Shown: positions 28,377 to 45,021, numbered from the stretch's first letter. The stretch: DNA of 64,000 nucleotides from Candidatus Latescibacterota bacterium (GCA_965204375.1 OZ241986.1:2912001-2976000), one strand, 5' to 3'. The notes: generated by a model not told the origin, from the letters alone. Numbers and translations: made by a program.

Positions 28377-29244
28377 TTTTTGTGCCGACCCGTTTGACAA
28401 CGACATTTTTCATCACATCAGTCGGTGGCTCAACACCCGTCCAGATCGCAAAAGACCGCGCTCCTTGAAAGACCAGCATATCCAGCCCTCCAAAAGCCAG
28501 CGCACCAACCGATTGAAACGCGCGCATCAACTGCGTTTCCAGCGGATTGAACACCGTATCGTAGAGCACCAAATCCGGATGGACAGCGCGCACATCGGCA
28601 AGGGGCGAGGCATTGACCTCGGGATACATCCCCAGCGAAGTGGTATTCACAACCACGCCCGCATCGGCAAACGCCCTGCATTGCGCATCGGCATCCAGTG
28701 CACCCACATCCATTTTTGTGCCCGTTATTTCTTCCATATCCACCGCCAGATCCTCAGCGCGTTTAACCGTGCGATTCAAAATCGTCACCCGCTGCACACT
28801 TTCTTGCGTTCCCAGCGCATACGTCACAGCGCGGGCAGCCCCACCGGCGCCGAGCACCACGCAATGCGCGGGAAATGTCACAATCCCCGCAATATCGCGC
28901 AATGCCGTCAGGACGCCATAGACATCCGTATTGTAACCGACCAACTCATCTTTTTCGCGCGAAATAGTATTAACCGCACCCACAGCCAGTGCTTCTTCTG
29001 AAATGCGATCCAGGTATTCCATCACCGCCAGCTTGTGCGGAATCGTCACATTTAACCCGCGAATATTCAGCCCGCGCAACCCCATCATCGCCTCATTCAC
29101 GCGGTCGGGCAATACGTGAAAAGCCACATAACAATAATCTACATCTAATGCGGCGATTGCGGCATTGTGCATATCGGGAGAAAACGAATGAGCCACCGGG
29201 TCGCCAATAACGCCCAGCACCTGACTTGTTGCGCGAATATTCAT
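28366..29244 (-). CDS. aroE: Shikimate dehydrogenase
   Basis: GDPVAHSFSP, NVTIPHK, GAVNT, NTD, GAGGAARA, NTTSLGM, GLDMLVFQG. Confidence 0.96.
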   Translation of the reverse strand: MNIRATSQVLGVIGDPVAHSFSPDMHNAAIAALDVDYCYVAFHVLPDRVNEAMMGLRGLNIRGLNVTIPHKLAVMEYLDRISEEALAVGAVNTISREKDELVGYNTDVYGVLTALRDIAGIVTFPAHCVVLGAGGAARAVTYALGTQESVQRVTILNRTVKRAEDLAVDMEEITGTKMDVGALDADAQCRAFADAGVVVNTTSLGMYPEVNASPLADVRAVHPDLVLYDTVFNPLETQLMRAFQSVGALAFGGLDMLVFQGARSFAIWTGVEPPTDVMKNVVVKRVGTKNER

Positions 29245-29399
29245 CAAGACCTTCGACTGCCATCCAGCAAATCATTTACAAACTCATCCGCAATATCAAA
29301 ACTCTCCTTCCACGAGCAGCTGTATGTATAGCGTATAAATGCCACACCGCCCAGGATCATCAAAATCGCAAATAGCGCGAGCTTAAAAAGTATCTTCAT
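29244..29399 (-). CDS. Small membrane-anchored protein (51 aa), not in ORF track
   Basis: MKILFKLALFAILMILGGVAFIRYTYSCSWKESFDIADEFVNDLLDGSRRS*; ATGA overlap with the upstream gene, TGATG overlap with aroE, GAGGTG RBS. Confidence 0.75.
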   Translation of the reverse strand: MKILFKLALFAILMILGGVAFIRYTYSCSWKESFDIADEFVNDLLDGSRRS

Positions 29400-30061
29400 A
29401 TTTTCACCTCTTTTGGTTGAACAACAGTAGATAAACAGGCAAATAACCCGGCGAAATCACGACACATATCACCCGTATTTGACACCCGGGTTTCGCCCTC
29501 GGCTACCAATCCCGCCAGTGCAAAGGTCAATCCCGTGAGGGCATCGCCGCCAGCATCGACCTCTATGCCCTCAAGGCGCACAGGCCCCTGCACCACCAGG
29601 CCATCGGGCATTTCGCCTACCTTAGCCCCCATTTGACGCAAATTTTGAATCGTCAGTGATAGGCGGTCAACCTCTCCCTGGCGCAAACCCTCTCCATCTC
29701 GAATAACCATTTCGCCCGCGGCTTGCGTGCCCATCACAGCGAGAAAAGGCACTTCACGAATAAATAGATCGGTTTGCTCGCCCCCTATGCGCGTGCGCCG
29801 CAATTCAGACCCCTGAACTTTAACCGTACGCGTCATCTCAGACTTTGATCGCGTCACCTGAATATCCAATTGTGCATTCAATCGTCGCAACAAATCCAAT
29901 GCGCGTCGGGTCTTCCAATCGTCGCCCACGCAGTGAAGGGTCAAATCCGACTGCGATAACATCGCCGCAGCGCCGAGCAAATACAGCGTAGTCTCAGGAT
30001 CCCCCGGCACATCGCATTCCCCAATAAGCCCACGCGCTTCTTTTACCTCATACATACTCAC
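29396..30061 (-). CDS. Half-length, catalytically degenerate EPSP-synthase (AroA)-like protein
   Basis: LIGECDVPGD resembles the AroA N-terminus, followed directly by C-terminal AroA-like segments (FIREVP, GLRQGEVDRL, LRQMGAKV, DALTGLTFALAGL); ~220 aa; GTG start after GGGGAG. Confidence 0.75.
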   Translation of the reverse strand: MSMYEVKEARGLIGECDVPGDPETTLYLLGAAAMLSQSDLTLHCVGDDWKTRRALDLLRRLNAQLDIQVTRSKSEMTRTVKVQGSELRRTRIGGEQTDLFIREVPFLAVMGTQAAGEMVIRDGEGLRQGEVDRLSLTIQNLRQMGAKVGEMPDGLVVQGPVRLEGIEVDAGGDALTGLTFALAGLVAEGETRVSNTGDMCRDFAGLFACLSTVVQPKEVKI

Positions 30062-30079
30062 GTTTTCGATCTCCCCTGG

Positions 30080-30160
30080 CGAATAGACGAATAAACGAAT
30101 AGACGAACCCCGCCCAACCACCTAACTGCTATCGTTGATTCGTTGATTCGCTGATTCGTC
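30080..30160. repeat. Dispersed intergenic repeat with inverted octamer arrays (copy 2)
   Basis: CGAATAGA-CGAATAAA-CGAATAGA-CGAAC...TCGTTGAT-TCGTTGAT-TCGCTGAT-TCGT; similar to 12938-13008. Confidence 0.7.
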
Positions 30161-31268
30161 ACCGCAGCCGCACTTGATAACCCGCATCTCGCAAAATATC
30201 GACAGACCGATCGGCTTCCTCCTGCTGCCCAAACCCCATTCGAATCGTCCCCCCTTCGCCTTCGCGCACCTTCAGCACTTCAATATCTTCAATATTAATT
30301 CCTTCGGCAGATAAACGCGATGCGACATCGGCAATCACACCGGGTTTGTCCTCCACCACCAGCAGTATTTCGTGGAGCGGGTGCAAAAATCCCTTGGAAT
30401 CTCTGGGAATCTCCCCGCGAATGCGATTGGCATAGTCAAAATCTTCTGATAACGCTTCCTGATCCACCTTCTCTCGTATCGCTACAAGCGCGTCGAGATA
30501 CGCATCGATCATCTCTCGAATAGGACCGGCATTGGTCTGACAAATATCCCGCCACATCGCGAACGGACTGGAGGCAATACGCGTCAAATCGCGGAACCCA
30601 CCCGCCGCCATTTGCAGGGGAAGACCATCGGCCTCATTGAGCCTGCCCACCAAACCCACGAGAGTAGTAGCCATCATCTGCGGCAAATGACTCACCGTCG
30701 CCGCGACTCGATCATGCGTCTCGGCCTCCATACGCATAGAACGCGCACCAATGCATTGCACCAGTGCTGCGAGCACATCCACAATTTCGTCGGAAACATC
30801 GCTTGCGGGCGTAAGCACATAAAGCGCGTTTTCAAACAAAAAGGGATCGGCTGCGCCCACGCCGCTCTTTTCCGACCCCGCCATGGGATGCCCGCCCACA
30901 AAATGCACATCTTCACGCGCAACCCGTTCTGCACATGCGACAATCGCGCCCTTTGTACTGCCCACATCTGTAATAACACAACCCGGCGAAGCCGCTTTCA
31001 CGACCGAGGGCAACTGCTCCAGAATACGCACAATAGGCGAACACAAAAATACCAGATCTGACCGCTTTATGCCATTGTCCATCGCGTCGTATTCATAGCC
31101 GCTGTCAATCACATCGAGCGCACGGGCCTCTCGCAGGGTCTCTGCGCGGCTAATACCAATAATCTCGCGCCCAATACCCAATCGCTTAAACGCCAGCCCC
31201 AGCGACCCACCAATCAACCCCACACCCACAATGGTAATCGCGGCATCTGTAAATGGAGGATCTTTCAT
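30159..31268 (-). CDS. tyrA: Prephenate/arogenate dehydrogenase with C-terminal ACT domain
   Basis: GVGLIGGS, DVGSTK, GHPMAGSE, HD...SHLP, GGFRDLTRIASS, ACT-like VEDKPGVIA. Confidence 0.95.
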   Translation of the reverse strand: MKDPPFTDAAITIVGVGLIGGSLGLAFKRLGIGREIIGISRAETLREARALDVIDSGYEYDAMDNGIKRSDLVFLCSPIVRILEQLPSVVKAASPGCVITDVGSTKGAIVACAERVAREDVHFVGGHPMAGSEKSGVGAADPFLFENALYVLTPASDVSDEIVDVLAALVQCIGARSMRMEAETHDRVAATVSHLPQMMATTLVGLVGRLNEADGLPLQMAAGGFRDLTRIASSPFAMWRDICQTNAGPIREMIDAYLDALVAIREKVDQEALSEDFDYANRIRGEIPRDSKGFLHPLHEILLVVEDKPGVIADVASRLSAEGINIEDIEVLKVREGEGGTIRMGFGQQEEADRSVDILRDAGYQVRLR

Positions 31269-31600
31269 GTTGGTGACTCAATTTCTAAATCTAAGGCAAA
31301 TAAGATAGCGTTTTTGATCTGTCTCATCACATTGTCTGAAAGTTTGCCAAGCCTTCTTTCAAGCCGGACTTTCGGCATAGAACCAAGTCCCTGTACATTG
31401 GCGTAAGAATCTTGATTCAGAAACCTCAACTTTGGCAATACCACCTCATAGGGACTTTGCCTGTACTGAGTCGTTAAAGGGATATAAGTTATCATAGCTC
31501 GCGGCGGGTCTGGATCGTAGCGAGATACCAAGAGAACAGGTCGTGTTTTTGCAGCTAAACCAAGATCCGCCAGCCAAATTTCACCGGGTTGTGGGTTCAT
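31265..31600 (-). CDS. PemK/MazF family toxin (mRNA interferase)
   Basis: GEIWLADLG...KTRPVLLVS, IPLTT, RLERRLGKL. Confidence 0.92.
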   Translation of the reverse strand: MNPQPGEIWLADLGLAAKTRPVLLVSRYDPDPPRAMITYIPLTTQYRQSPYEVVLPKLRFLNQDSYANVQGLGSMPKVRLERRLGKLSDNVMRQIKNAILFALDLEIESPT

Positions 31601-31766
31601 CGAGTAGATTCAAAACCTCCTGTTCTACGAAACGCGATTGCATGATATCCAGGACATCATGGTCTGCGAGATCAATAATTTCCGCTACTCGCCCCCTAAC
31701 CTCCGCTACCGTATTGGGCTTCCATTCGCGTAATTTTGCGTTTAATTTTTTTGCTAAAACATCCAT
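31581..31766 (-). CDS. Putative antitoxin of the MazF-like toxin (61 aa)
   Basis: Small ORF with acidic C-terminus, directly upstream of and overlapping the toxin; GGAGGAG RBS before ATG 31766. Confidence 0.65.
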   Translation of the reverse strand: MDVLAKKLNAKLREWKPNTVAEVRGRVAEIIDLADHDVLDIMQSRFVEQEVLNLLDEPTTR

Positions 31767-31857
31767 TGATTCTCCTCCATTAGGCTGCTTGTGGTATTGA
31801 TTCTCCTCCATTAGGCTGCTTGTGGTATTGATTCTCCTCCATTAGGCTGCTTGTGGT
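31765..31857. repeat. Perfect tandem repeat, 3 x 31 bp
   Basis: ATTGATTCTCCTCCATTAGGCTGCTTGTGGT at 31765, 31796 and 31827, with no spacers. Confidence 0.95.
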
Positions 31858-32129
31858 TTGACGTAAACTTCGACTTGCATCCCAGCCAGCGTCAGCATAT
31901 TAATCAATTTATCCACGCTAAAACGACGAATATCTCCCTGAATTAAATTACTAATACGCGGCTGGGATTCGCCAAAAAATGTAGCGGCTTGACTCTGGGT
32001 CCATCCCTTTGTTTGAATGTACTTTCTCAAGTCAAGCATTAAATCAGCCCGAACTTTTAAGCTCGCTGCTTCTTCCCGATCAAAACCGATATCTTCAAAT
32101 ACATTATCAATACCTTGAGTCACTTCCAT
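31842..32129 (-). CDS. XRE-family HTH protein (HigA2-like antitoxin, HTH_37)
   Basis: NVFEDIGF, LKVRADLM, WTQSQAA...SQPRISNL, FSVDKLINML; AAGGAGG RBS. Confidence 0.88.
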   Translation of the reverse strand: MEVTQGIDNVFEDIGFDREEAASLKVRADLMLDLRKYIQTKGWTQSQAATFFGESQPRISNLIQGDIRRFSVDKLINMLTLAGMQVEVYVKPQAA

Positions 32130-32225
32130 AACTCAGCCTCCTTAGATTTATTCAACATATAATTAAACATACCTAATTTGGCATAAAAAACAAGAACGAC
32201 ATGAATCGTACCCGCTTCTTTAGCT

Positions 32226-32492
32226 TTATGACGCTTCTTTACCGAAGTCGTTGGCAAAAATGAGAAAATCACCAAACCCAATCGCGCCATCGCCATCCAG
32301 ATCAAACCGCGCATCATACCCCGCATCGCCTCGACTTAATCCGAACTGTGCCACTAAAAGCAAAAAGTCGGCAAAGTCAATAACACCATCGCGATCAAAG
32401 TCGGGATTAGCGGTCAGGGGAGTGGGCAGAACGATGGCGTCGCTGGCGGTGCTGGCAAGAATAAAGGTCTTGGGAGATTGTGAGTAGGCCAC
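32226..32492 (-). pseudogene. Gene remnant retaining only a dockerin-like/EF-hand module
   Basis: DFDRDGVIDFADFLLLVAQFG...DLDGDGAIGFGDFLIFANDFG; the upstream sequence has stops and no convincing start or signal peptide. Confidence 0.6.
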
Positions 32493-32667
32493 GAAGTGGA
32501 GTTACCCCGCTTCGGTGGAGTATTTAGGGCTTGTGTTCCAAGCCTGTGATTGATGCAGCTTTTCATAAGCTATGGGTGCATGGTAGGCGATGGAAGAATA
32601 CCTTTTTTGATGTCATAACTTTCGCCTCTATTCAGCTTTTACCATCACTAATGCGTGTTTCGCAACC

Positions 32668-33693
32668 CTAAACCAGACCCGCCAGGTCCTTCACGAACAC
32701 TTCCGTATCTTCCCACCCCAGGCATGGGTCGGTAATCGACTTCCCAAATATCCCCTCTTCGGGTTTTTGCGCGCCCTCCTCCAGATAACTCTCCACCATC
32801 AACCCGCGCACCACATTGTGAAGCAGCGCGGAATGGCGCCGGCTGCGCATCACCTCCAGACCAATACGCGGCTGTTCGGAGAATATTTTATCTGAATTAT
32901 TGTGATTGGTATCCACAATAATCGTCGGATTGCTCAACTTGCGCGCCAGGTATTGCTCGGCAACACGCATCAAATCTTCGTAGTGATAATTGGGAATACT
33001 CCGCCCATTATACGACATCCCGCGCAACACCGCATGCGTCAACGAATTACCCGACGTACTGACTTCCCATCCATTGTGAAAAAACACATGTGGCATTTGC
33101 GCTGCATAAATGGCATTGAACATCACATCCAGATCGCCACCCGTCGGGTTTTTCATGCCCGCGGGCACATCGACACCGCTAATAGTCAGGCGATGATTCT
33201 GATTTTCAACAGACCGCGCCCCCACGGCAATATAACTCAGCAAATCCTCCACATAAGGCAAATTCGAAGGATAGAGCATCTCATCGGCAGCCGTCAAATG
33301 CGACTCGCGAAAAGCGCGAATCTGCATCTGCCGAATGGTCTTAATCCCAACAACCATATCGGGCATACCCTCGGGATCGGGCTGATGTGCCATACCCTTA
33401 TACCCCTCGCCAGTCGTGCGCGGCTTATTGGTATAAATTCGCGGCACGAGCACCAACTTGTCCATCACCTGCTCTTGAAGCTGCGCCAGGCGATTTACAT
33501 ATTCACACACCGCATCGACATTGTGAGCCGAACACGGACCAATAACCAACAAAAACTTATCGCTCCTACGCTCAAAAATAGCCCGAATCTCGGCATCGCG
33601 CTCTTCCTTCTTAGCCTTCAAATCATCGGGCAGTGGCAAAACATCCTGGATTTCTTCTGCACTGGGAATCGGCTGAATCCGTTTGAAACTCAT
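32668..33693 (-). CDS. 3-deoxy-7-phosphoheptulonate (DAHP) synthase, class I
   Basis: IGPCSAH, KPRTTGEGYKG, VGARS, GMKNPT, VDTNHNNS, MVES, GKSITDPCLGW. Confidence 0.95.
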   Translation of the reverse strand: MSFKRIQPIPSAEEIQDVLPLPDDLKAKKEERDAEIRAIFERRSDKFLLVIGPCSAHNVDAVCEYVNRLAQLQEQVMDKLVLVPRIYTNKPRTTGEGYKGMAHQPDPEGMPDMVVGIKTIRQMQIRAFRESHLTAADEMLYPSNLPYVEDLLSYIAVGARSVENQNHRLTISGVDVPAGMKNPTGGDLDVMFNAIYAAQMPHVFFHNGWEVSTSGNSLTHAVLRGMSYNGRSIPNYHYEDLMRVAEQYLARKLSNPTIIVDTNHNNSDKIFSEQPRIGLEVMRSRRHSALLHNVVRGLMVESYLEEGAQKPEEGIFGKSITDPCLGWEDTEVFVKDLAGLV

Positions 33694-33706
33694 AACAATA
33701 CCTTTT

Positions 33707-33988
33707 TTAAGACTCTGAATCTGCGTGATCTTCTTCCAACCGCAGTGACTCATCGATAATCTGTCTAAAAATGCGTTGTGCTGCTTCGTGACTCAAAGGC
33801 CCGCCATTCAATTCGCGAATGCGGTTGAGAATCAGGGTTTCTCGTTCAGGGACATGAAAGGGCAAACCCTCGGCACGCTTAATTTTTCCCACAGACAGCG
33901 CATACTGAGCACGCTCATTGAGCAACTCGAGAATCTGATCATCTAAGGCATCGATTTTCTCGCGCCAGAAATCCAGATCCTTCTCCAT
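33707..33988 (-). CDS. Chorismate mutase (AroQ type)
   Basis: REKIDALDDQILELLNERA, VGKIK, PERE, IFRQII. Confidence 0.93.
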   Translation of the reverse strand: MEKDLDFWREKIDALDDQILELLNERAQYALSVGKIKRAEGLPFHVPERETLILNRIRELNGGPLSHEAAQRIFRQIIDESLRLEEDHADSES

Positions 33989-33991
33989 AAC

Positions 33992-34795
33992 CTACACACC
34001 CTCTCTCAAAGGGCCGATCAAAGACCCGACAAAAGCACCCACCTTTGAAACCAGGTCGGCATCGTGTTGGTACTCGCCCATGCGACGCACAATCGCGCTA
34101 CCAACCACAACCGCATCGGCATATCGCGCAATTTCGGACACATGCTCGGGCGTTGAAATACCAAACCCAACGGCAATGGGCATATCTGTGTGCTGGCATA
34201 TCGCAGACACCTTGCTTTGAATTTCATCTGCCAGAGAATCGCGCTCTCCCGTCACCCCGGTGCGCGACACATAATAGACAAAACCCCTCGTATGCGATGC
34301 AATCAGCTTCATCCGATCATCGCGCGTGGTAGGCGTCACGAGAAAAATCGTATTCAGCCCGTGCTCATTCATCCGCGCTATATAATCACCGCCCTCTTCC
34401 GGGGGCAGATCCAGCATCAGAACACCATCCACCCCCACATCTGCAGCGCGTTTTACAAAGCGCGCCACACCGTAGCGGTGAATCGGATTGTAATACGTAA
34501 ACAGCACAATGGGTATTTCTGTCTCAGTCCGCACATCTGCAACCATAGACAATACGCCCTCGAGCGTTGCACCAGCGGCCAAAGCGCGTTGAGACGCCTC
34601 CTGAATCACGGGACCATCGGCCAGAGGATCTGAAAAGGGTACACCCAATTCCAGGACATCCACACCTCGCCGATCCAATTCCAACACCATCTGGTGCGTG
34701 GTATTTAAGTCCGGATCACCCGCCGCAATATATGCGACGAACCCGGTCCTACCCGCTTTTCTCAAGTCATCAAACCGCCGTCCAATCCGCGTCAT
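33992..34795 (-). CDS. trpA: Tryptophan synthase alpha subunit
   Basis: [38 protein letters not shown]. Confidence 0.98.
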
Positions 34796-35997
34796 CTCGC
34801 TCCTTCTATAAACTGCGCCGCCTGTTGCACATCTTTGTCACCGCGTCCCGATAAATTGACAACCACAATCTGATCTCGACTCATCTCGGGTGCCAACTTG
34901 CAAACATGGGCAATAGCGTGTGAACTCTCCAAAGCGGGAATAATCCCTTCGGTATGACTGAGCAACTCAAAAGCACTGAGTGCCTCTTCATCCGTCGCAT
35001 ACGTATAAGCCGTGCGCGCCATATCTCGCAAATAACAATGCTCTGGCCCCACGCCCGAATAATCGAGACCAGCCGATACCGAATGCGTCAATGCGATTTG
35101 CCCATCATCATCTTGCAACACATAGATGCGCGCACCGTGCAAAACTCCCAAATCACCGCCATTAAAACGCGCAGCGTGCTCGCCAGATTCAATACCGTGC
35201 CCTCCGGCCTCCACACCGATCATCTGCACATCGGCATCATCCAAAAAAGCGTGAAACAACCCGATAGAATTGCTTCCCCCACCCACACAGGCGACGAGTA
35301 CATCGGGCAATCGGCCTTCTCTTTTCAAAATTTGGGCACGGGCTTCAACGCCAATAACCCGCTGAAAATCCCGCACAATCATCGGATACGGATGCGGTCC
35401 CAAAACCGAACCAAAAATGTAAAACGTATCCTCCACATTGGTCACCCAGTCGCGGATGGCCTCATTAATCGCATCCTTCAGGGTTTTGCTACCCGAATGG
35501 ACACCCGTAACTTTCGCTCCCAGGAGCCGCATGCGAAACACATTGAGCGCTTGTCGTTCCATATCTTCAACACCCATGTAAATTTCGCATTTGAGACCAA
35601 ACATCGCCGCCACAGTTGCCGTTGCCACGCCGTGTTGTCCGGCACCAGTCTCGGCAATAATCCGCGTCTTGCCCATCCGGTTGGCGAGCAAAATCTGCCC
35701 CATGGCGTGATTGATTTTATGCGCTCCCGTATGGGCGAGATCTTCGCGCTTGAGATAAATTTTAGGACCGCCGAGTTCTTCTGTCAACCGCTCGGCAAAA
35801 TAAAGCGGCGTGGGCCGCCCGACGTAATCGCGCAAATATCGATCCAGTTCAGCCCAGAACTCGGGGTCGCGCTTTGCCTCTCGATAAGCCGCCTCAAGGT
35901 CTTCCAACAGCGCCATAAGCGTCTCGGGCACATACTGCCCACCATAAGGCCCAAAATGTCCGCGCGCATCGGGCAAATCAATTGCGTTCACAGCCAT
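34792..35997 (-). CDS. trpB: Tryptophan synthase beta subunit
   Basis: [54 protein letters not shown]. Confidence 0.98.
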
Positions 35998-36010
35998 ATT
36001 GTATATCCTC

Positions 36011-36988
36011 TTAAATATCCCCAACGACCTGATCGTAAAATGCCAGATACTGATCGCAGTCATCACCATCGAGCAATGCCATTGCCTCGCGGGGATGCTG
36101 GTTGTGCTGGCCCGTGATGTTATAGGGCACCAGAGGTCCCCACGTCATTTCGCGGCGCAACTTGACAAAATACTCTTCCAGCAACTTATAGACGGGACGG
36201 ATCTTAAACTTGGGATTCCGCAAAAAACCGAGCAACAATTCCATGGGACAATTGCCCGCACCGCGCCCCAATCCATCCACAGTGGCATCGACCCGATTAG
36301 CTCCTAAAATAATGGCCTCAATAGTATTGGCAAATGCCAGTTGCTGATTATTGTGCGCGTGAATACCCACCTCTTTGCCCGAACCCTTGGTCGCCTCCAT
36401 GTATTTTCGCACAAGCATATCGACCTGCTCGCGATACAGCGCACCGAAACTATCCACAACGCAAATCGTGCCCACAGGGGTTTGCATCAACACTTCTAAC
36501 GCCTGATCAATCTCGACATCTTGCACAGTCGAAATCGCCATAATATTACAACTCGTTTCATACCCCTTCTCGTGGGCATCGAGCAACATTTCGACAGTCT
36601 CGGGAATCTGATCGACATAACACGCCACGCGTACCATATCGACCACGCTCTCGCTGGCCAGCAGAATATCTTCGGCCCAATCGCTCTTGCCCGCATCGGC
36701 CATAATTGCGAGTTTCATCCCCGTCGCTTCGGGATCGTGATCCCCAGTAATTTTGCGAATATCCTCTTCATCGCTGTGGCGGAACGCACCAAAATCTCTT
36801 TTGGGGAACATCTCCTTGGAGTTTCGGTACCCAATTTCCATATAGTCAACACCTGCCGCGACACATGTTTCATACACGGCCTTCACAAAATCATCATCAA
36901 AATGATGGTCATTCATCAAACCGCCATCGCGGATCGTACAATCGAGTACCTTGAGTTCCGGACGGTAGGTAATCCAGGGTGCTTTCAT
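36011..36988 (-). CDS. DRE-TIM metallolyase (HMGL-like; 4-hydroxy-2-oxovalerate aldolase-like)
   Basis: [34 protein letters not shown]. Confidence 0.85.
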
Positions 36989-37049
36989 AAAAAAATCCTT
37001 CCTTTGGGGTTAAAGTTAGTGAAAAATTTAATAACATTTATTTCATAGA

Positions 37050-37120
37050 CTGGATTGCGGCTCAAAACCATGCCGCAATGACATCCATCGCTCGTCACTC
37101 CTGCAAAAGCAGGAGTCCAG
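37050..37120. repeat. Inverted pair of REP-like palindromes (CTGGATT...AATGAC type)
   Basis: CTGGATTGCGGC-TCAAAACCAT-GCCGCAATGAC followed by GTCACTCCTGC-AAAA-GCAGGAGTCCAG, just downstream of tyrS. Confidence 0.7.
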
Positions 37121-37132
37121 CTATCTTCTTTA

Positions 37133-38395
37133 TCACACCGACCACCTCACCAAAAAGTAACTGCGTTTGCCTCGGCGCATCACCAGATATTTTCCAGCCA
37201 GTCTTTCAGAAGGCTCTAAAATATGACCCATATCTGTGCAACGTTGCCCATTGATATAAATGGCACCTGTCCTGATATCTTCGCGAGCCTGTCGCCTGGA
37301 CGAAGAAATTTGCGCATCCACGAGCAAATCGATCAAACCCACTTCATCAGCACCATTGAGCGCGTAAGACGGCACATCGCTAAACCCCTCTGCAATCTCC
37401 TGCTCGTTCAAATCCTGCAAATTGCCGTAAAACAGCGCCTCGGAAATATGCACGGCGCGATCCTTTGCGGCTGCACCGTGGATAAAAGTTGTCACCTCTT
37501 CAGCCAGCACGCGCTGCGCCTCGCGCTTCTCGGGTTGCGCCTCCACCTCTCGTTCCAATTCCTCTATGCGTTCGCGACTCAAAAAAGTGAACAACTTTAA
37601 GAATTTCACCACATCGCGATCTGCCGCATTCACCCAAAACTGATAAAACTGATAGGGCGATGTCTTCTCGGGATCGAGCCATAACGTTCCCGTCTCGGTC
37701 TTGCCAAACTTTGTCCCATCCGACTTTTCCAGCAACGGAAAAGTCAACCCATACACAGTCTTACTGAGTACGCGCCGACACAATTCTATACCCGCCGTAA
37801 TATTGCCCCACTGATCGCTACCCCCGATCTGAAGCTCACAGCCATACTTTCTGTTCAACTCCATAAAGTCATACGCCTGCAAGACCATATAACTAAATTC
37901 GGTAAAAGAAATCCCGGTTGAAAGACGCGACGACACCGACTCTTTCCCCAGCATATACCCCATTGAAAAGTGTTTGCCCACATCGCGCAAAAATTCAATC
38001 GTACGCAACTCTGAAAGCCAGGTATAATTGCTCACCATCAGCGCCGGGTTATCCCTGGTCTCAAAATCCAGATACTTTTCCAACTGCGCGCGCTGGCACT
38101 CTGTATATGCCTGCACCACCTCCAGTGAATTCAACTGTCGCTCTTCTTCTTTCCCACTCGGATCGCCGATCAATCCCGTGCCCCCGCCCACGAGTGCAAT
38201 GGGCTTGTGCCCCGCATCTTGAAAGCGACGCAATCCCATAATGGGAACCAGACTGCCCGCATGCAGACTATCGGCAGTGGGGTCAAATCCGCAATACAAT
38301 GTCACCTGCCCCTCTGCCAAACGCCTGCGGAGCTTATCTTCATCTGTCATCTGAAAAATATAGCCACGAAATGCCAAATCGTCTAACACATCCAC
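37133..38395 (-). CDS. tyrS: Tyrosine--tRNA ligase
   Basis: YCGFDPTADSLHAG, QIGGSDQWGNI, KFGKT, C-terminal S4 domain. Confidence 0.98.
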   Translation of the reverse strand: MDVLDDLAFRGYIFQMTDEDKLRRRLAEGQVTLYCGFDPTADSLHAGSLVPIMGLRRFQDAGHKPIALVGGGTGLIGDPSGKEEERQLNSLEVVQAYTECQRAQLEKYLDFETRDNPALMVSNYTWLSELRTIEFLRDVGKHFSMGYMLGKESVSSRLSTGISFTEFSYMVLQAYDFMELNRKYGCELQIGGSDQWGNITAGIELCRRVLSKTVYGLTFPLLEKSDGTKFGKTETGTLWLDPEKTSPYQFYQFWVNAADRDVVKFLKLFTFLSRERIEELEREVEAQPEKREAQRVLAEEVTTFIHGAAAKDRAVHISEALFYGNLQDLNEQEIAEGFSDVPSYALNGADEVGLIDLLVDAQISSSRRQAREDIRTGAIYINGQRCTDMGHILEPSERLAGKYLVMRRGKRSYFLVRWSV

Positions 38396-38416
38396 GTTTT
38401 TATCTCCATATTCATA

Positions 38417-39025
38417 TCACGCCTTTACGCGCACCAAAAAATCCTTCACCTTTTTGTGATCCTTCTTCCCCGGCTCAGCTTCTACGCCACTACTCGTATC
38501 CACCGCATAGGGACCAACTCGCTCAATCGCCTCCCGAACATTATCCGGATTTAACCCACCGGAAAGAATAATGCGCCCATACTCTTTTGCCGCCACCGCC
38601 TTTGACCAATCAAATATCTCCCCCGTACCGCCGTAAGAACCCTCTTTCTCTGTATCCAATAAAAATGTATTGACCAGATACGATCCCATGGTCTGCACAT
38701 CAAAATCTCGTCCCACGCGAAGCGCGCGAATCACCGGAACCGCATGCCCCAGACATGCTTCTGGCGATTCATCCCCGTGCAACTGAATCGCCCGCAGCCC
38801 CGCCAACTTCACGGCAACATCAATCTCCCGCTCCGATGCATTCACGAATATCCCTACGGGCGTCACAAACGGCGGCAAATCAAAAATAATTTCTCCGGCT
38901 TTCTCGGGCGCAATATAGCGAAGACTCTTCTCGTAAAAAATAAACCCCAGAGCATCTGCGCCGTGATCAACGGCACACAGCGCATCATCCCGATTTGTAA
39001 CACCGCAAATTTTAGCTCGCACCAT
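38417..39025 (-). CDS. trpF: Phosphoribosylanthranilate isomerase
   Basis: KICGVT, QLHGDE, GGTG, LSGGLNPDNV, VDTSSGVE. Confidence 0.97.
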   Translation of the reverse strand: MVRAKICGVTNRDDALCAVDHGADALGFIFYEKSLRYIAPEKAGEIIFDLPPFVTPVGIFVNASEREIDVAVKLAGLRAIQLHGDESPEACLGHAVPVIRALRVGRDFDVQTMGSYLVNTFLLDTEKEGSYGGTGEIFDWSKAVAAKEYGRIILSGGLNPDNVREAIERVGPYAVDTSSGVEAEPGKKDHKKVKDFLVRVKA

Positions 39026-39806
39026 ATCCCATCAACTCCTTTAACTTGGCGGCAATATCCGATTCTCGCATCAAACTCTCGCCCACCAGCACCGCATCTG
39101 CGCCCGCATCTCGAAGCGCGACAACATCCTCGCGCGTATAAATACCACTTTCACTCACCGTCAACACATCATCGGGGATCTGATCGATCAACCCATAAGT
39201 CGTATCCAGAGACGTATCAAAAGTTTTCAAATTTCGATTATTAATCCCAACAATCTCCGCACCCGCATCGAGCGCGACCATCAGTTCCTCTCTCTCATGT
39301 ACCTCCACCACCGCATCCAGCCCCAATGCCCGACTCGTCGCTATAAATGGGGACAATTTTTCAGGCGTTAAAATCGACACAATCAACAACACAGCCGAAG
39401 CTCCAATCGCCCGCGCCTCGTAAATCTGATAGGGATCAATCGTGAAATCCTTGCGCAAAATGGGCCGATCGACAACTGTTGAAATCCGAGTCAAATAATC
39501 TGCCGACCCCTGAAAAAATTTCTCATCCGTCAATACCGAAAGTGCCGAAGCCCCATTTTCCACATAAATTTTCGCAATATCCACCGCGTCAAAATCCCTG
39601 CGGATCACGCCCTTAGACGGCGAAGCCTTTTTGACTTCGGCGATCACAGCGATATCGTCTCCATCTATTAGCCCATCAAAAAACGAAGGCGGCTCTGGCG
39701 CATCTTCCGCCAACTGCGCCATCTCCTCAAACGGCGTCTGCGCCATACACCTGGCGAGAAACCTGCGTTTATACGCCACAATTTTGTCGAGAATATTGCC
39801 AGCCAT
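39012..39806 (-). CDS. trpC: Indole-3-glycerol phosphate synthase
   Basis: IAEVKKASPSKG, SVLTD, LRKDF, GINNRNL, SESGI, LVGESLM. Confidence 0.98.
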   Translation of the reverse strand: MAGNILDKIVAYKRRFLARCMAQTPFEEMAQLAEDAPEPPSFFDGLIDGDDIAVIAEVKKASPSKGVIRRDFDAVDIAKIYVENGASALSVLTDEKFFQGSADYLTRISTVVDRPILRKDFTIDPYQIYEARAIGASAVLLIVSILTPEKLSPFIATSRALGLDAVVEVHEREELMVALDAGAEIVGINNRNLKTFDTSLDTTYGLIDQIPDDVLTVSESGIYTREDVVALRDAGADAVLVGESLMRESDIAAKLKELMGYGAS

Positions 39807-39831
39807 AAAATCCCATCATCCTCAGACAGTG

Positions 39832-40896
39832 CTAAAGCCACGACCGCGGGTCGGGAACGGACACCCATCCATTTTCGCGTACTGACTGCAATCCCGCAAT
39901 ACCGGGCAGTGTCATATCCAGCGCCTGCATCAAATCTATCGGCGATCGCAATCCATTCACAATCGCCTGCACAAAATCCAAAACAATGAGCATACTCGTT
40001 TTGCCGTGCCCTGCACCGAGTGCGTCCGAAAACTGGGACAACTCGGGATGGTGGCATTCTTCTCGCGTCACCTGCTCCTTATTTCCCACCGAATAATAAC
40101 ACACCGTTCGTGCTTCGCGAAATCGCCCCGTCTCAAAAGAACCCTCATCGCCATAAAAACTCAAAAAATGGCTCATCCCATGCACATTCTGAAACGAATT
40201 TGTCAATCTGAACACCGCGCCTTCTTCGGTTCGAAACAAAGCCGTCTGCACCCAATCTGCTTCATATCCCTCTAAAAATTCATCTCTCCCTGAAGCCGAA
40301 ACAGCCATGACCTCAGCCAAACGATCACCCGTCATATTCAAATACGGTGACGTCCCATGTGTCGGATAAAGAAGGGGTTGTAAACTATTCCGCCAGGTAG
40401 ATCGTCCATCGGGATGTCGTCTCAACGCTTTTAGACCGTGAATATACTCGGCCTCGGCATAGTAAATACGCCCCAGTTTCTGCGACTCATAAAGCGACCT
40501 CGCACGCACCACACTGGGTTCATAGACCCAATTCTCAGCCATCATATAAATGCGGTCACTTTTTGAAACGACCTCGACCAATGCCTTTGCCTCATCCATA
40601 GTCAGCGCAGCGGGGACAGCACACAAAACGTGCTTACCAGCCCGAATTGATCGAATCACATGTTCTGCATGAAGCGGCGCAGGAGTAAAAATAGCCACCG
40701 CATCAATCCGTTCATCAGCGACCAGATCATCAAAAGCCGCATAACAAGCATCGACACCCAACTGCTCTTTTGCCTCGTCCCGTCTCTCCTGCTGGATGTC
40801 ACAAACAGCCACCAAATCAGTCTCGGCATACGCATCAAACACCTGCGCCCAGGACATACCAAATCGCAAACCCGCAACACCTACCGAGAGAGCCAT
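39832..40896 (-). CDS. Gfo/Idh/MocA family oxidoreductase
   Basis: N-terminal Rossmann fold, TPAPLHAEH, AGKHVLCAVP, AEAEYIH, YPTH. Confidence 0.88.
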   Translation of the reverse strand: MALSVGVAGLRFGMSWAQVFDAYAETDLVAVCDIQQERRDEAKEQLGVDACYAAFDDLVADERIDAVAIFTPAPLHAEHVIRSIRAGKHVLCAVPAALTMDEAKALVEVVSKSDRIYMMAENWVYEPSVVRARSLYESQKLGRIYYAEAEYIHGLKALRRHPDGRSTWRNSLQPLLYPTHGTSPYLNMTGDRLAEVMAVSASGRDEFLEGYEADWVQTALFRTEEGAVFRLTNSFQNVHGMSHFLSFYGDEGSFETGRFREARTVCYYSVGNKEQVTREECHHPELSQFSDALGAGHGKTSMLIVLDFVQAIVNGLRSPIDLMQALDMTLPGIAGLQSVRENGWVSVPDPRSWL

Positions 40897-40919
40897 TTTA
40901 CGTTACTCCATCCCCAAAA

Positions 40920-41933
40920 TCATTCTCGACTCGCCGCCACCAAACCCTCCAACTTCTCCAACGCCTTCCCCGAATCAATCACTTCAGCGGCGGCTTGCAC
41001 GCCTTCATTGAGATCACGCGCCTTATCGCCCGCCACAATCGCCGCCGCCGCATTCAACAACACAATATCTCGCCGAGGGCCTTCCTCCCCATTCAGAATC
41101 GACCGCGTAATCTCTGCATTATAATCGGCATCCCCGCCTTTTAGCGCGTCGGCTGGGGCCTGCGCCAGCCCAAAGTCCCCAGGTGATACGTCATACGTCG
41201 AAACCGATCCATTTTTCAATTCACTCACCCTCGTCGGCCCCGTCAAGGTCATCTCATCCAAACCATCCGAACCGTGAACGACAAACGCGCGCTCCGTTCC
41301 CAGAGTCCCCAAAACACCTGCAAGTGTCTCGGTCAATGCCGCGCTGTACACGCCGACCACCTGCCGCGTTGCACCCGCCGGATTGCTCAGCGGCCCCAGC
41401 GCATTGAAAATTGTCCGCGCACCAATTTCCCGACGCGGTCCAATCGCGTATTTCATCGCCCCGTGCAATGAAATGGCAAACAAAAACCCGATACCCACAT
41501 CGTCCAGACACCTGCTCACCGTCTCGGGCGATGCCTCAATATTCACACCCAATGCACTCAGTACGTCCGCGCTACCGCTTTGACTCGTCGCCGCGCGATT
41601 GCCGTGTTTGGCCACACACAAACCCGCCCCAGCCGCGACAAATGCCGCAGTTGTCGAAATATTAAACGTGCCCGAATGATCGCCCCCCGTGCCACAGGTA
41701 TCGACAATCACATCGTGCTTTGTCGCAATAGGCGTCGCCTTCTCGCGCATTACAGACGCGGCCCCGGCAATCTCATCAACACACTCGCCCTTCACGCGCA
41801 ACGCAATCAAAAACGCGCCGATCTGCGCATCCGTCGCCTCGCCCGACATAATCTGATTCATCGCATCCGTCATCTCACCCCGGCTCAAATCTGCACCTTC
41901 AATTACTTTTGCAACCGCCTCTTGTATGTTCAT
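40920..41933 (-). CDS. trpD: Anthranilate phosphoribosyltransferase
   Basis: DTCGTGGD, FNIST, KHGNR, GSADVL, RTIFN, DGLDE. Confidence 0.98.
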   Translation of the reverse strand: MNIQEAVAKVIEGADLSRGEMTDAMNQIMSGEATDAQIGAFLIALRVKGECVDEIAGAASVMREKATPIATKHDVIVDTCGTGGDHSGTFNISTTAAFVAAGAGLCVAKHGNRAATSQSGSADVLSALGVNIEASPETVSRCLDDVGIGFLFAISLHGAMKYAIGPRREIGARTIFNALGPLSNPAGATRQVVGVYSAALTETLAGVLGTLGTERAFVVHGSDGLDEMTLTGPTRVSELKNGSVSTYDVSPGDFGLAQAPADALKGGDADYNAEITRSILNGEEGPRRDIVLLNAAAAIVAGDKARDLNEGVQAAAEVIDSGKALEKLEGLVAASRE

Positions 41934-41955
41934 ACTCATCTCCTCAGCTAACAAA

Positions 41956-42519
41956 TCATGCATCGAGAAAATTTTGCAGCAAATTCTTGCCTTCACCCGT
42001 CAAAATCGATTCGGGGTGAAACTGCACGCCATCCACCGCCATATCTCGATGGCGCAAACCCATAATCACGCCATCATCGGTCTCTGCTGTAATTTCCAGA
42101 CAAACGGGCAAACTCTCTCGTTCCACCACCAGCGAATGATAGCGTGTGGCAATAAACGGCTCAGGTAACCCCTGAAAAACAGACTCCCCACTATGATGAA
42201 TCTCCGACACCTTCCCGTGCATAATTGTCGGCGCGCCCACAATTTTCCCGCCAAATGCCTGCCCGATGGACTGGTGCCCCAGACAAACCCCTAAAATAGG
42301 AATTTTTCCGGCAAAGTGCTGCACCAGAGCCACGGAAATCCCCGCTTCGTTTGGCGTGCACGGTCCTGGAGAAATTACAATCTTCTCAGGTGCTATATCA
42401 TCAATCTCTTCAAGTGAGATTTGATCATTGCGATATACCATCAGACCCGCACCCAGTTCGCCGAGATATTGAACGAGGTTATAAGTAAACGAATCGTAGT
42501 TATCAATGACGAGAATCAC
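41956..42519 (-). CDS. trpG: Anthranilate synthase component II (glutamine amidotransferase)
   Basis: [34 protein letters not shown]. Confidence 0.96.
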
Positions 42520-43988
42520 AACACTCCTCCTTCAGCCATTTCTACCGCCCGAAACAGTGCCCGCGCTTTGTTCACGGTCTCCTGATATTCGTATTCCGGC
42601 TCTGAATCAAACACCACACCACCTCCCGCCTGCACATACGCTTTGCCATCCTTAATCACCAGCGTGCGAATGGCAATACACGTATCCATATTGCCCGCAA
42701 AATCGATATAACCCACCGCACCGGCATAAGGTCCTCGGCGCGTTGGTTCCATCTCGTCGATAATCTCCATCGCCCGAATTTTCGGCGCACCCGACACCGT
42801 ACCAGCCGGATAACAGGCAAAAAGCGCGTCCAGCGCATCGACACCCTCGTGCAATTCGCCGCGCACATTCGAAACGATATGCATCACATGCGAATAGCGT
42901 TCAATCGTCATCTGCTCGGTCACGCGCACCGTATCAAACCTGGAGACGCGCCCCACATCATTGCGCCCCAGATCCACCAGCATAATATGCTCGGCGCGTT
43001 CTTTTTCATCTGCCAACAACTCCTGTGACAGCACCTGATCTTCTGCCTCTGTTTTGCCGCGCCACCGCGTCCCCGCAATAGGTCGCACCTGCACCACCCC
43101 GTCCTCTACCCTGACGAGCAACTCGGGCGACGCGCCCACGAGTTGATGGTCTGTCAAATCGACGTGAAACATATAAGGCGACGGATTCACCGTCCGCAAA
43201 GCCCGATAAATATCCAGCGCATCAACCGTCACATCCATTGCAAAACGCTGCGAAGGCACCACCTGAAAAATATCACCTGCCACGATGTATTCCCTGCAAC
43301 GCGCCACCACATCCATATACGCTTCTTTGCTCGTATTTGAAGTCACCTCGCACGAACTCGTTCCAGGCATTAGGGACGCATCCGCCGGCTCCGCCAGTGC
43401 CTCAATCAGCGCATCAATCCGTTTGACTGCATCTGCGTAATTCGCCTCCAAATCTCCCTCTGTATGCACATTGGCCATCACATGCACTTTGTGTGTCACA
43501 TTGTCAAACGCCAGCACCGAATCGTAAAATGAGAAAAATATATCGTCTATATCGAGATCGTCTTCAACCGTCTCGGGAATGCGCTCAATCAAACGCACGG
43601 CATCGTAACTCACATAGCCCACAGCACCGCCTGTAAATCGAGGAAACCCTTCCACATGTTGCGAATGGTATTTTTTTAACAACCCACGCAATACCTCAAC
43701 AGGCTCCCCCTCAAATATTCGCAACTCACCCGTCGTCGCATGTTCAATCGAAATTTTTGTTCCGCGCGAACGAAAAACCAAAAACGGATCCACGCCCAAA
43801 AACGAATACCGCCCAATCTGCTCGCCGCCCACCACGCTTTCAAACAAAAACGCATGAGAAGACTTTGCGCGAATTTTCAAATAAGCCGAAACGGGCGTCT
43901 CTGTATCCGCGAGAATTTCTCTTGAAATGGGAACGAGTCCACAGCCTTCGCTCAGCTTCTCGACAGTTTTAAGATCGGGTTGAATCAC
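42516..43988 (-). CDS. trpE: Anthranilate synthase component I
   Basis: [49 protein letters not shown]; GTG start after AAGGA. Confidence 0.97.
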
Positions 43989-44000
43989 CAAAAAATCCTT

Positions 44001-44040
44001 AAAAAAAATAAAAAAGGCCGTGAGCAGTTTGCCCACGACC
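44001..44040 (-). terminator. Intrinsic terminator of the trpE leader (attenuator)
   Basis: Minus strand GGTCGTGGGCA-AAC-TGCTCACGGCC followed by TTTTTTATTTTTTTT, ending just before the trpE RBS. Confidence 0.9.
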
Positions 44041-44067
44041 TCGTACTTTTATTCACTTACATCACAC

Positions 44068-44172
44068 TTAAAACGCAGGACAAACCACACTCTTGGACGG
44101 GCGGCGATAATAATAATATCGGCCGTCAAATCGACGCCAAAAATACCAGAAGTAGGTTGCAAAAGCGTTCAT
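44068..44172 (-). CDS. Attenuator leader peptide rich in Phe/Tyr/Trp (34 aa), not in ORF track
   Basis: MNAFATYFWYFWRRFDGRYYYYRRPSKSVVCPAF* (6 Tyr, 5 Phe, 2 Trp, 5 Arg); AAGGA RBS; alternative GTG start at 44175; upstream of the terminator and trpE. Confidence 0.9.
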   Translation of the reverse strand: MNAFATYFWYFWRRFDGRYYYYRRPSKSVVCPAF

Positions 44173-44213
44173 CACATCAAATTCCTTAAACCAGAGTTAT
44201 ATCGGACGCGCCA

Positions 44214-44241
44214 AAGATAACAAATTCTAAAACAGTGTCAA
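44214..44241 (-). promoter_or_regulatory. Sigma70-type promoter of the leader/trp operon
   Basis: TTGACA (44241-44236), 16-nt spacer ending TG-T, then TATCTT (44219-44214). Confidence 0.65.
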
Positions 44242-44250
44242 GAAAGAAGT

Positions 44251-45021
44251 TTATTCATGACCGTCAATCGTGCCCACCTCAATTTTCAACTCATCGCGAT
44301 CAATAATGCGATCTACGCGGCCATCGCGCACCCACACCACGCGGTCGGATACCGACAGCATCTTGTGATCGTGCGTCGCTGAAATCACAGTCACGCCCGA
44401 CTCCTCGTTCATCTGGCGCAACAGTTCAATAATCTCTCGCCCCGTATTCAAATCGAGATTCCCAGTCGGCTCGTCAGCCAGAATAATCGCTGGATCGTTG
44501 GCAAAGGCCCGCGCAACAGCCACGCGCTGCTGCTGCCCACCCGAAAGCTCAAAAGGTTTGTGCATCACGCGCTCGCCCAGACCGACCTGTGTCAACAATT
44601 CTACGCCCTTGTCGCGCGCCTCGTCGCTCGTCAGTCCGGCGAACACCATCGGCAGAGTCACATTCTCAAGTGCTGTCATCACCGGAATCAAATTATAAGA
44701 TTGAAAAATATAACCGATCTTTCGGCAGCGCAACCATGCGAGTTCATAAGCGTCGAGTTGGGCGACATCGACATCGTCGATATAGACCTTGCCCTCGGTC
44801 GGCTTGTCCAATCCACCCACCATATTGAACAGAGTACTCTTCCCCGAACCAGAAGGTCCCATAATGGACAGGTATTCGCCCTGTGTCACTTCCAGGTCCA
44901 CGCCTTTGAGTGCGTGAATCTGCTCTTCGCCCATTATGTACACCTTCTTCACATCTTGTGTGCGTACAACTGTCGCTTCTTCGGCCTCTGCATTTGTTTC
45001 TGTTTTTTCTTCGGCAGCCAT
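44251..45021 (-). CDS. ABC transporter ATP-binding protein (LolD/MacB-type)
   Basis: GPSGSGKST, LSGGQQQRVA, ILADEPTGNLD, ATHD. Confidence 0.95.
   Translation of the reverse strand: MAAEEKTETNAEAEEATVVRTQDVKKVYIMGEEQIHALKGVDLEVTQGEYLSIMGPSGSGKSTLFNMVGGLDKPTEGKVYIDDVDVAQLDAYELAWLRCRKIGYIFQSYNLIPVMTALENVTLPMVFAGLTSDEARDKGVELLTQVGLGERVMHKPFELSGGQQQRVAVARAFANDPAIILADEPTGNLDLNTGREIIELLRQMNEESGVTVISATHDHKMLSVSDRVVWVRDGRVDRIIDRDELKIEVGTIDGHE

Follow-up and report, generated by a model that had tools for sequence, protein, structure and literature searches.

A candidate leader-peptide attenuator with mixed aromatic codons ahead of a trp-tyrS operon in an uncultured bacterial phylum

The window analyzed here, a stretch of 64,000 nucleotides from a genome deposited as Candidatus Latescibacterota bacterium (GCA_965204375.1, OZ241986.1:2912001-2976000), carries a short leader region between an ABC-transporter ATPase gene (45033-44251, minus) and trpE, the first gene of a large tryptophan operon. 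The original prediction described this region as a leader-peptide attenuator responding to all three aromatic amino acids. Coordinates are given in the window on the minus strand, and features were read from the sequence at the positions listed. The promoter, the ribosome-binding site (RBS), the 34-codon frame with its 13 aromatic codons, the Tyr-Phe-Trp doublet, the Tyr run and the terminator were all recovered where they had been described.

44214-44241, minus: putative promoter P1, with a -35 hexamer equal to the consensus (44241-44236), a 16-base spacer and an extended -10 (44219-44214)
44183-44187, minus: RBS of the leader, AAGGA-type, 10 bases 5' of the ATG
44068-44172, minus: leader reading frame of 34 codons, ATG at 44172, TAA stop at 44070-44068
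44146-44168, minus: segment 1 (codons 2-9), predicted 5' strand of a long-range 1:2 helix, from an RNAalifold consensus of 20 genus sequences
44137-44154, minus: first aromatic block, codons 7-12 (Tyr-Phe-Trp-Tyr-Phe-Trp)
44107-44118, minus: run of four Tyr codons, codons 19-22
44096-44127, minus: inner hairpin, with the Tyr run in its loop and stem
44073-44096, minus: segment 2 (codons 26-34), able to pair with segment 1 or, through 44088-44074, with segment 3
44024-44037, minus: segment 3, formed by the terminator's 5' arm and loop, with which segment 2 can pair instead
44001-44042, minus: intrinsic terminator, a hairpin (44042-44014) and a T run
42516-44000, minus: trpE with its RBS (44000-43996) and a GTG start at 43988, 27 bases past the hairpin
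37133-38395, minus: tyrS (TIGR00234, 416 bits against a cut-off of 113.8)
32668-43988, minus: tightly packed run of 12 genes, presumed to lie under the leader, with names from Pfam and NCBIfam

The promoter-like site falls in the 79-base gap that follows the ATPase gene. P1 matches the consensus at 10 of 12 positions, has TG ahead of its -10 hexamer and recurs as the same box upstream of the leader in relatives; it is the putative promoter of the leader transcript. The frame behind it holds two Trp, six Tyr and five Phe codons, the Phe codons outside the first block being 4, 15 and 34. Of the 37,201 frames of 20-60 codons that start with ATG in the 6.34-Mb genome, it has the third-highest aromatic fraction. 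The terminator hairpin has 13 pairs, seven of them G-C, ahead of its T run and folds at -20.1 kcal/mol (z = -5.8), a value equaled by none of 200 shuffles. Terminator-like sites in the 15.3 kb from 29000 to 44300 number 17, against 16.7 expected from shuffles, and the leader terminator is the only strong one among them and by far the strongest. The 27 bases that separate the hairpin from the trpE start consist mostly of the T run and the trpE RBS. The extra hairpin that had been noticed over the Tyr codons is present at its place and is modest in stability (-9.5 kcal/mol, z = -1.9, with 12 of 200 shuffles as good).

The 12 genes run in the order trpE, trpG, trpD, a GFO/IDH/MocA oxidoreductase, trpC, trpF, tyrS, an HMGL-like aldolase, trpB, trpA, chorismate mutase (93 residues) and DAHP synthase. 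By its gene content, the operon makes Trp, includes tyrS and contributes to the supply of Tyr and Phe, the amino acids whose codons are clustered in the leader. No strong internal terminator was found in the 15.3 kb covering the run, and the genes are presumably co-transcribed. Beyond a toxin-antitoxin insertion follow tyrA, half of an EPSP-synthase-like frame, aroE, a ubiE-type methyltransferase, argS, aroK and aroB. Three class Ib synthetase genes were found in the genome, and the tyrS of the operon is the only tyrosyl-tRNA synthetase gene among them; one of the other two is trpS by NCBIfam, and the third was judged trpS from its N-terminal residues only.

Within the genus, the 261-base leader region was matched by BLAST in 20 of 20 genomes, and it was unmatched by BLAST in four other genera of the family and in 16 sister-family genomes. 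The frame is encoded in all 20 genus copies (the window's own and those of 19 relatives), with Trp 9 invariant and two Trp codons in 19 of them. One genome has lost Phe 11 and Trp 12 and gained a Trp at codon 17 (from Gly 17), and the Tyr run counts four codons in 14 genomes and three in the remaining six. Insertions and deletions before codon 26 are all multiples of three bases (losses of Tyr codons and two 6-base deletions), and in one genome a 2-base deletion past codon 26 alters the peptide tail and leaves the nucleotides of segment 2 intact, which together indicate that the frame is preserved as codons in its front part and as RNA at its end. The distance from the hairpin to the trpE start is 25-28 bases in 11 of the 20 genomes, which leaves no room for another promoter there. 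The leader RBS was seen by eye in 15 of the 20 upstream stretches.

Several genus members carry insertions around the element. In genome G010 (locus L093, 1720-2207, minus), two small overlapping genes of 89 and 75 codons lie between the promoter and the leader frame, which starts 20 bases past the stop of the second gene and has no RBS of its own; the same insertion is probably present in G009, G013, G018 and G020, as judged from G010, the only one read. In five or six of the 20 genomes (loci L085, L087, L088, L094, L096 and probably L097), a short repeated unit in one to several copies adds 30-140 bases between the T run and the trpE RBS, and it looks like a small mobile or REP-like element. 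Two further genus genomes have other extra sequence between the terminator and trpE.

To extend the comparison, trpE was located in 91 of 121 genomes of the phylum, and 661 bases upstream were fetched for 40 of them. These formed a first set, from the order and class, with families f1 (other genera), f2 and f4, and a second set, from the class and phylum, with f3 and five other families. In 19 of the 20 genomes of the first set, a short frame with many Trp, Tyr and Phe codons precedes a hairpin with a T run; the twentieth is interrupted by a contig end, and the automatic terminator rule missed one of the 19. Tyr clusters also occur in the leaders of other genera of the order. In the second set, 15 of 20 genomes have a leader that contains two to four Trp codons and is followed by a terminator, and in the other five a gene ends directly before trpE with no leader. 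A core of Trp-X-Trp or Trp-Trp followed by Arg recurs phylum-wide, at least one Trp codon is present in all 21 genus-level leaders, and the element lies directly before trpE wherever it was found. The expectation that the leader frame and its aromatic codons would be conserved upstream of trpE in relatives was thus borne out within and beyond the genus. A metagenome-assembled genome labelled Latescibacteria UBA2968 (TrpE 72% identical) has the Tyr-rich leader type, and on the basis of its label the phylum of these genomes is probably Latescibacterota. Outside the phylum, 10 of the 80 closest TrpE loci passed an automatic screen that required two or more Trp codons in a frame and a terminator behind it, and by eye most of these are ordinary Trp-run leaders.

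Most genera other than that of the window also have a conserved box with a perfect -35 hexamer 40-110 bases before trpE, after the leader terminator (loci L101, L104, L105, L106-L110 and L119), some with an AT-rich stretch and a short palindrome behind it. This box could be a second promoter or an operator; a promoter scan made no call on it in the one relative tested, and it is absent from the window and its genus.

The codons of the leaders vary with the synthetase gene of the operon behind them. Operon content was established by local tblastn with the window proteins, with NCBIfam applied to three cases. As in the window, tyrS follows trpF in 12 of the 12 relatives' operons examined in f1, f2 and f4, and two genera have an unrelated type of tyrosyl-tRNA synthetase at the same operon place. 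In the seven f3 operons examined, trpS follows trpC in every case, and tyrS, trpF, trpB and trpA are missing from that position. Counting by eye one leader per genus, leaders of tyrS operons hold three to six Tyr and one or two Trp codons, with a single Trp in six of ten, and leaders of the f3 trpS operons hold two to four Trp and one or two Tyr codons. The pooled counts, also made by eye, are as follows.

tyrS-type leaders (n = 10): Trp 14, Tyr 40, Phe 30, in 308 residues in total
Other-family leaders (n = 11): Trp 28, Tyr 15, Phe 16, in 317 residues in total

Typical proteomes contain about 1% Trp, 3% Tyr and 4% Phe. By comparison with these values, the other-family leaders are enriched in Trp only, and the tyrS-type leaders are enriched in all three residues, in Tyr most and in Phe least. 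This contrast fits a sensor of the charged tRNAs that are served by the operon.

In a whole-genome scan for small frames with runs of one residue before terminator-like hairpins, only the trpE leader and a leader ahead of the second trpS stood out; no His, Leu, Thr, Ile or Phe leader did. The first trpS lies directly behind its upstream gene without a leader, and so does pheA, located about 70 kb past the end of the window. The second trpS (TIGR00233, residues 65-387; locus L164 of the window's own genome at about 2330-2770, minus, G000:C1 about 2721300-2721750) has upstream of it a promoter-like box and then a frame of 36 codons, three of them Trp codons close to the end, with a hairpin and T run behind the frame. 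Then comes a second stretch with three consecutive Trp codons, a hairpin made of them and another terminator-like hairpin, and this stretch is in frame with the trpS with no stop between. The arrangement looks like a tandem Trp attenuator, and a Trp-codon leader with a terminator at this place suggests that the lineage uses this kind of control.

Taken together, these results point, with a probability of about 0.72, to a ribosome-mediated leader-peptide transcription attenuator of the trp-tyrS-chorismate mutase-DAHP synthase operon. The anatomy, its conservation and the match between leader codons and operon genes are observed directly, and from them we infer the translation of the frame, the stalling, the switch and the amino acids that matter. 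Transcription would start at P1, and the 34-codon frame would be translated while the RNA is being made. A shortage of charged tRNA-Trp or tRNA-Tyr, and possibly of tRNA-Phe, would stall the ribosome in codons 7-12 or 19-22; segment 2 (codons 29-33), left uncovered, would pair with the terminator's 5' arm and loop, and the polymerase would continue into trpE. When all these charged tRNAs are plentiful, a ribosome at the stop codon would cover segment 2, the terminator would form and transcription would end 27 bases before trpE. Sensing of Trp and Tyr is likely, and sensing of Phe is possible.

The alternative pairing on which such a switch would depend was examined at several levels. In the window, 44088-44078 can form an 11-pair helix with 44034-44024, including three G-U pairs, and this helix stops 10 bases short of the last base of the stop codon. 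In the classical scheme, a 1:2 helix would hold segment 2 as long as the leader is untranslated; the RNAalifold consensus of the genus pairs codons 2-9 with codons 26-34, and a model of the truncated RNA with no ribosome still forms the 2:3 helix (P 0.89). In the order-level alignment, 79% of the antiterminator cells are paired, against 28-51% when the partner is slid, a six-pair core is nearly invariant, and the covariation score is attained by 11 of 500 shuffles. The terminator arm sequences differ strongly between families, and in each case the complementary sequence stands at the end of the leader frame. A phylum-wide test for an uninterrupted Watson-Crick helix between the frame end and the terminator 5' arm (shuffle p <= 0.01) found significant helices of 8-10 pairs in 17 of 37 sequences and in eight of 18 genera, one of the seven variants of the window's genus among them. 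At least five different sequence solutions occur across the phylum, always positioned at the end of the small frame. The original proposal that antiterminator and terminator exclude each other is upheld by this conserved placement and by the five solutions, and is left marginal for the helix of the window itself (p = 0.03).

A number of results weigh against the attenuator as proposed here. The length of the window antiterminator was reached by 3% of 2000 shuffles of its 5' partner, which places it marginally above chance. The uninterrupted-helix test was not significant at 0.01 in 10 of the 18 genera, and three of the seven variants in the window's genus (G019, G011 and G020) have uncompensated loop changes and no helix above chance (p 0.33-0.43). 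The duplex energy between frame end and terminator arm, compared with shuffles and with terminators of other families, was weak (z = -0.9 for the window, median z = -1.1); this test was dropped because G+C-rich arms pair with almost anything. The check by covariation that had been suggested came out well for the terminator, which across 23 order-level sequences has 98% of its cells paired, four pairs with compensatory change and a score matched by none of 500 shuffles. Of the other two helices, the antiterminator has at order level a compensatory change in only one pair, a measure that 497 of 500 shuffles reach, and the 1:2 helix has none in 37 pairs among the 20 genus sequences. A looser occupancy model, in which the terminator 5' arm may pair with anything, gave values of 0.3-0.9 across 18 genera even with the ribosome at the stop codon and thus no discrimination. 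The leader RBS is absent from five of the 20 genus genomes (G010, G009, G013, G018 and G020), where the promoter match lies about 0.6-0.7 kb upstream, and in genera with the -35-like box part of trp expression may bypass the attenuator. The contrast between trpS and tyrS operons involves two clades and amounts to essentially one evolutionary switch, as kin are not independent, and the operon stretch examined yielded no gene specific to Phe (pheA, pheST). Finally, equilibrium folding of the whole terminator with a ribosome mask lets the terminator win at any ribosome position (P 0.95), which makes that calculation uninformative.

The full terminator of the E. coli trp element likewise wins at equilibrium. 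A switch at this locus must therefore be kinetic, and the nascent RNA was for that reason folded as if cut at 44024, where the 5' arm and loop of the terminator are present and its 3' arm is missing, with a ribosome footprint of -15 to +12. Without a ribosome, the antiterminator then has a probability of about 0.9, and the same holds for a ribosome at most positions from codon 3 to codon 24. Dips occur at codons 18-20 (0.06-0.63, with Tyr 19 at 0.06 and Tyr 20 at 0.63) and also at codon 24. With a ribosome anywhere from codon 26 to the stop, the probability is 0.00, and the switch falls at codons 25-26. Twelve of the 13 aromatic codons lie within the read-through zone of this model, and Phe 34 alone lies in its termination zone. 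The model is an illustration of the classical geometry and not proof of it. Altogether, the attenuator reading of the original prediction is well supported: frame, aromatic codons, terminator and alternative pairing are conserved far beyond the genus, and in the nascent-RNA model the antiterminator forms with a ribosome at codons 3-24 and is blocked by one from codon 26 to the stop.

Some information on transcripts was available from Logan contigs. Contigs from four metatranscriptome runs (three studies, on sponge and coral) cover the leader of close relatives and stop at 44008-44045, and one of them has the same in-frame 6-base deletion as a genome. Other metatranscriptome contigs cover trpE up to 43944-43978, and no contig spans 43987-44007. 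Contigs cannot show RNA ends, T runs break assemblies and one contig has a loose end at 44008; the leader contigs are at most a faint hint of a 3' end at the terminator.

Other explanations of the same features were considered. The element could be an attenuator sensing Trp only, with the Tyr and Phe codons as passengers, being U/A-rich triplets that build hairpins or that drifted in. The presence of Trp in every genus-level leader, the phylum-wide Trp and Arg core and the position of the Tyr run in the loop and stem of the inner hairpin all agree with this, and in known systems a stall at one rare Trp codon can be enough. It is nevertheless unlikely, as the tyrS-type leaders drop to one Trp in six of ten cases while Tyr rises to three to six codons (40 of 308 pooled residues, against 15 of 317), and the Tyr codons persist from genus to genus although how many there are, where they stand and which nucleotides surround them all vary. 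Tyr abundance also follows tyrS rather than any one hairpin.

A separate small gene or small RNA that has a promoter and terminator of its own, with trpE transcribed from elsewhere, would account for the contigs that cover the leader and stop near the terminator, and in most other genera the -35-like box after the terminator could serve trpE. This is very improbable given that only 27 bases separate the hairpin from the trpE start in the window, that the element always lies directly before trpE across the phylum, and that pairing with the terminator arm would have no role in a stand-alone gene; the downstream box also drew no call from the promoter scan in the relative tested. Hardly credible is a nascent-peptide sensor of the TnaC kind, in which a free aromatic amino acid in the exit tunnel arrests the ribosome. 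In E. coli TnaC, the spacing is Trp 12, Asp 16 and Pro 24, with Pro as the last sense codon, and the window peptide with Trp 12, Asp 16 and Pro 25 resembles it. Nine codons follow Pro 25 here, however, the Trp-x3-Asp spacing occurs in only two genera of the family and in none of the others, and in one genus member the peptide tail changes frame with the RNA kept. Arrest by a plentiful amino acid in codons 3-24 would moreover increase the output of a biosynthetic operon while its product is abundant, the opposite of the sign required, and the TnaC reading was rejected.

Within the attenuator reading, the leaders would form a phylum-wide family before trpE whose codons were retuned from Trp-rich, in trpS operons, to Tyr- and Phe-rich with one or two Trp, in tyrS operons. 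It is tempting to see the trpE leader as a reprogrammable sensor of charged tRNA, its codons rewritten from Trp-rich to Tyr- and Phe-rich on one scaffold when the synthetase gene of the operon changed from trpS to tyrS, so that in the order of the window the trp pathway would be turned on mainly when charged tRNA-Tyr runs short, Trp and Phe being additional inputs of a three-input OR gate. This extension is tentative, and we hold it with clearly less confidence than the attenuator itself. The OR gate for three aromatic amino acids in the original prediction holds up in part, as Trp and Tyr codons track trpS and tyrS; for Phe, the enrichment is weaker and the operon stretch has no gene specific to it.

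Comparison with RNA families gave no direct relative. A scan of 43000-45000 against Rfam 15 (E <= 10) returned no match to RF00513 (Trp_leader) and none to the T-box, which in Firmicutes controls tyrS and trp genes by tRNA-sensing antitermination, and the seven hits listed, to snoRNA, miRNA and sRNA models, were all far below their gathering scores. The terminator matches the trpB motif weakly (22 bits against a gathering score of 59), which is chance level, and this candidate was set aside.

Among known systems, trpL of E. coli and Salmonella (RF00513) is similar in having a promoter, a short frame with Trp codons, four RNA segments, a terminator before trpE and a ribosome at the stop codon that masks segment 2. 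It differs in that the element described here lacks an RF00513 match, has two non-adjacent Trp codons together with six Tyr and five Phe, precedes an operon with tyrS, chorismate mutase and DAHP synthase, and belongs to an uncultured phylum. The thrL (Thr/Ile) and ilvL (ilvGMEDA; Leu/Val/Ile) leaders of Enterobacteria are multivalent, and lack of any of the residues relieves termination; they likewise mix in one frame the codons of several amino acids of a shared pathway, in their case non-aromatic ones. Control of trp and aro genes in Bacillus by TRAP (a protein) and by the T-box (uncharged tRNA) involves no translating ribosome, unlike the mechanism considered here, in which the translating ribosome would act.

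Cases with aromatic codons are fewer. In E. coli, pheM (pheST) and pheL (pheA) are leader frames of a single aromatic residue that control by attenuation (PMC11802643). They resemble the present case in setting leader codons against a synthetase operon or a pathway gene, the parallel here being Tyr codons before an operon that contains the only tyrS found in the genome. They differ in their Phe-only codon runs and in controlling one or two genes. The nearest published mixed case found in the accessible text is aroR of Corynebacterium glutamicum (Phe-Tyr-Phe), which precedes aroF and answers Phe and not Tyr limitation (Neshat et al. 2014, via PMC11802643). There, too, a mixed aromatic leader peptide attenuates an operon with DAHP synthase; the part of the source available mentions no Trp codons, and the leader stands before aroF instead of a trp operon and in Actinobacteria. 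Aromatic supraoperons with attenuators predicted from structure, large mixed aromatic clusters that likewise start with a terminator/antiterminator element, have been described in a paper whose available text has no occurrence of leader peptides (Song et al. 2005, BMC Biol 3:13, PMC1173090). According to the portion available of a survey of Actinobacteria, no attenuators were found there for Phe or Tyr genes (PMC1262725).

Literature searches, with most subscription journals outside their coverage, returned nothing relevant on leaders with Tyr codons (including those of tyrS), on classical attenuation combined with trpE, or on tryptophan attenuation in Latescibacteria. This agrees with the earlier statement that such a leader is undescribed in this lineage, for which no paper was found. 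If it is an attenuator, the element is a classical one in a new mixed-aromatic variant. To our knowledge, nearly all leader-peptide attenuators studied come from Proteobacteria, Actinobacteria and a few other groups, and each aromatic case senses one amino acid. One RNA scaffold kept across an uncultured phylum, with codons that differ along with the synthetase of the operon, would be a natural series for the retuning of attenuators in evolution. If correct, the reading predicts an odd physiology, in which tyrosine shortage turns on tryptophan synthesis, and it would offer a compact and designable sensor with several amino-acid inputs. For annotation, the leader would mark the start of the 12-gene operon and account for a possible control of the one tyrS found in the genome.

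Several minor observations concern the genes behind the leader. The oxidoreductase between trpD and trpC (39832-40896, minus) was found in none of the operons of 20 relatives. The HMGL-like aldolase (36011-36988, minus) shares 84-90% identity with its counterparts at this position in two other genera, against 55-85% for the neighboring trp genes, and was not found in the other genera; both genes look like recent insertions. Inside trpB, a terminator-like hairpin of seven pairs is immediately followed by the best promoter match of the region, at 11 of 12 positions (35759-35820, minus), and this combination may be due to chance. The interval between DAHP synthase and tyrA (31265-32492, minus) holds a PemK/MazF-type toxin, an HTH_37 antitoxin-like frame, a 76-codon frame and a small EF-hand/dockerin-like frame, and in relatives in which both genes were located they are about 90-290 bases apart. 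The frame after tyrA (29396-30121, minus) aligns with EPSP synthase over the C-terminal half alone (profile positions 224-405) and represents a truncated aroA or else a remnant. The genome has two full-length genes of the EPSP-synthase family elsewhere, and in most relatives tyrA and the EPSP-synthase part are separated by about 600-1300 additional bases, against about 80 in G026.

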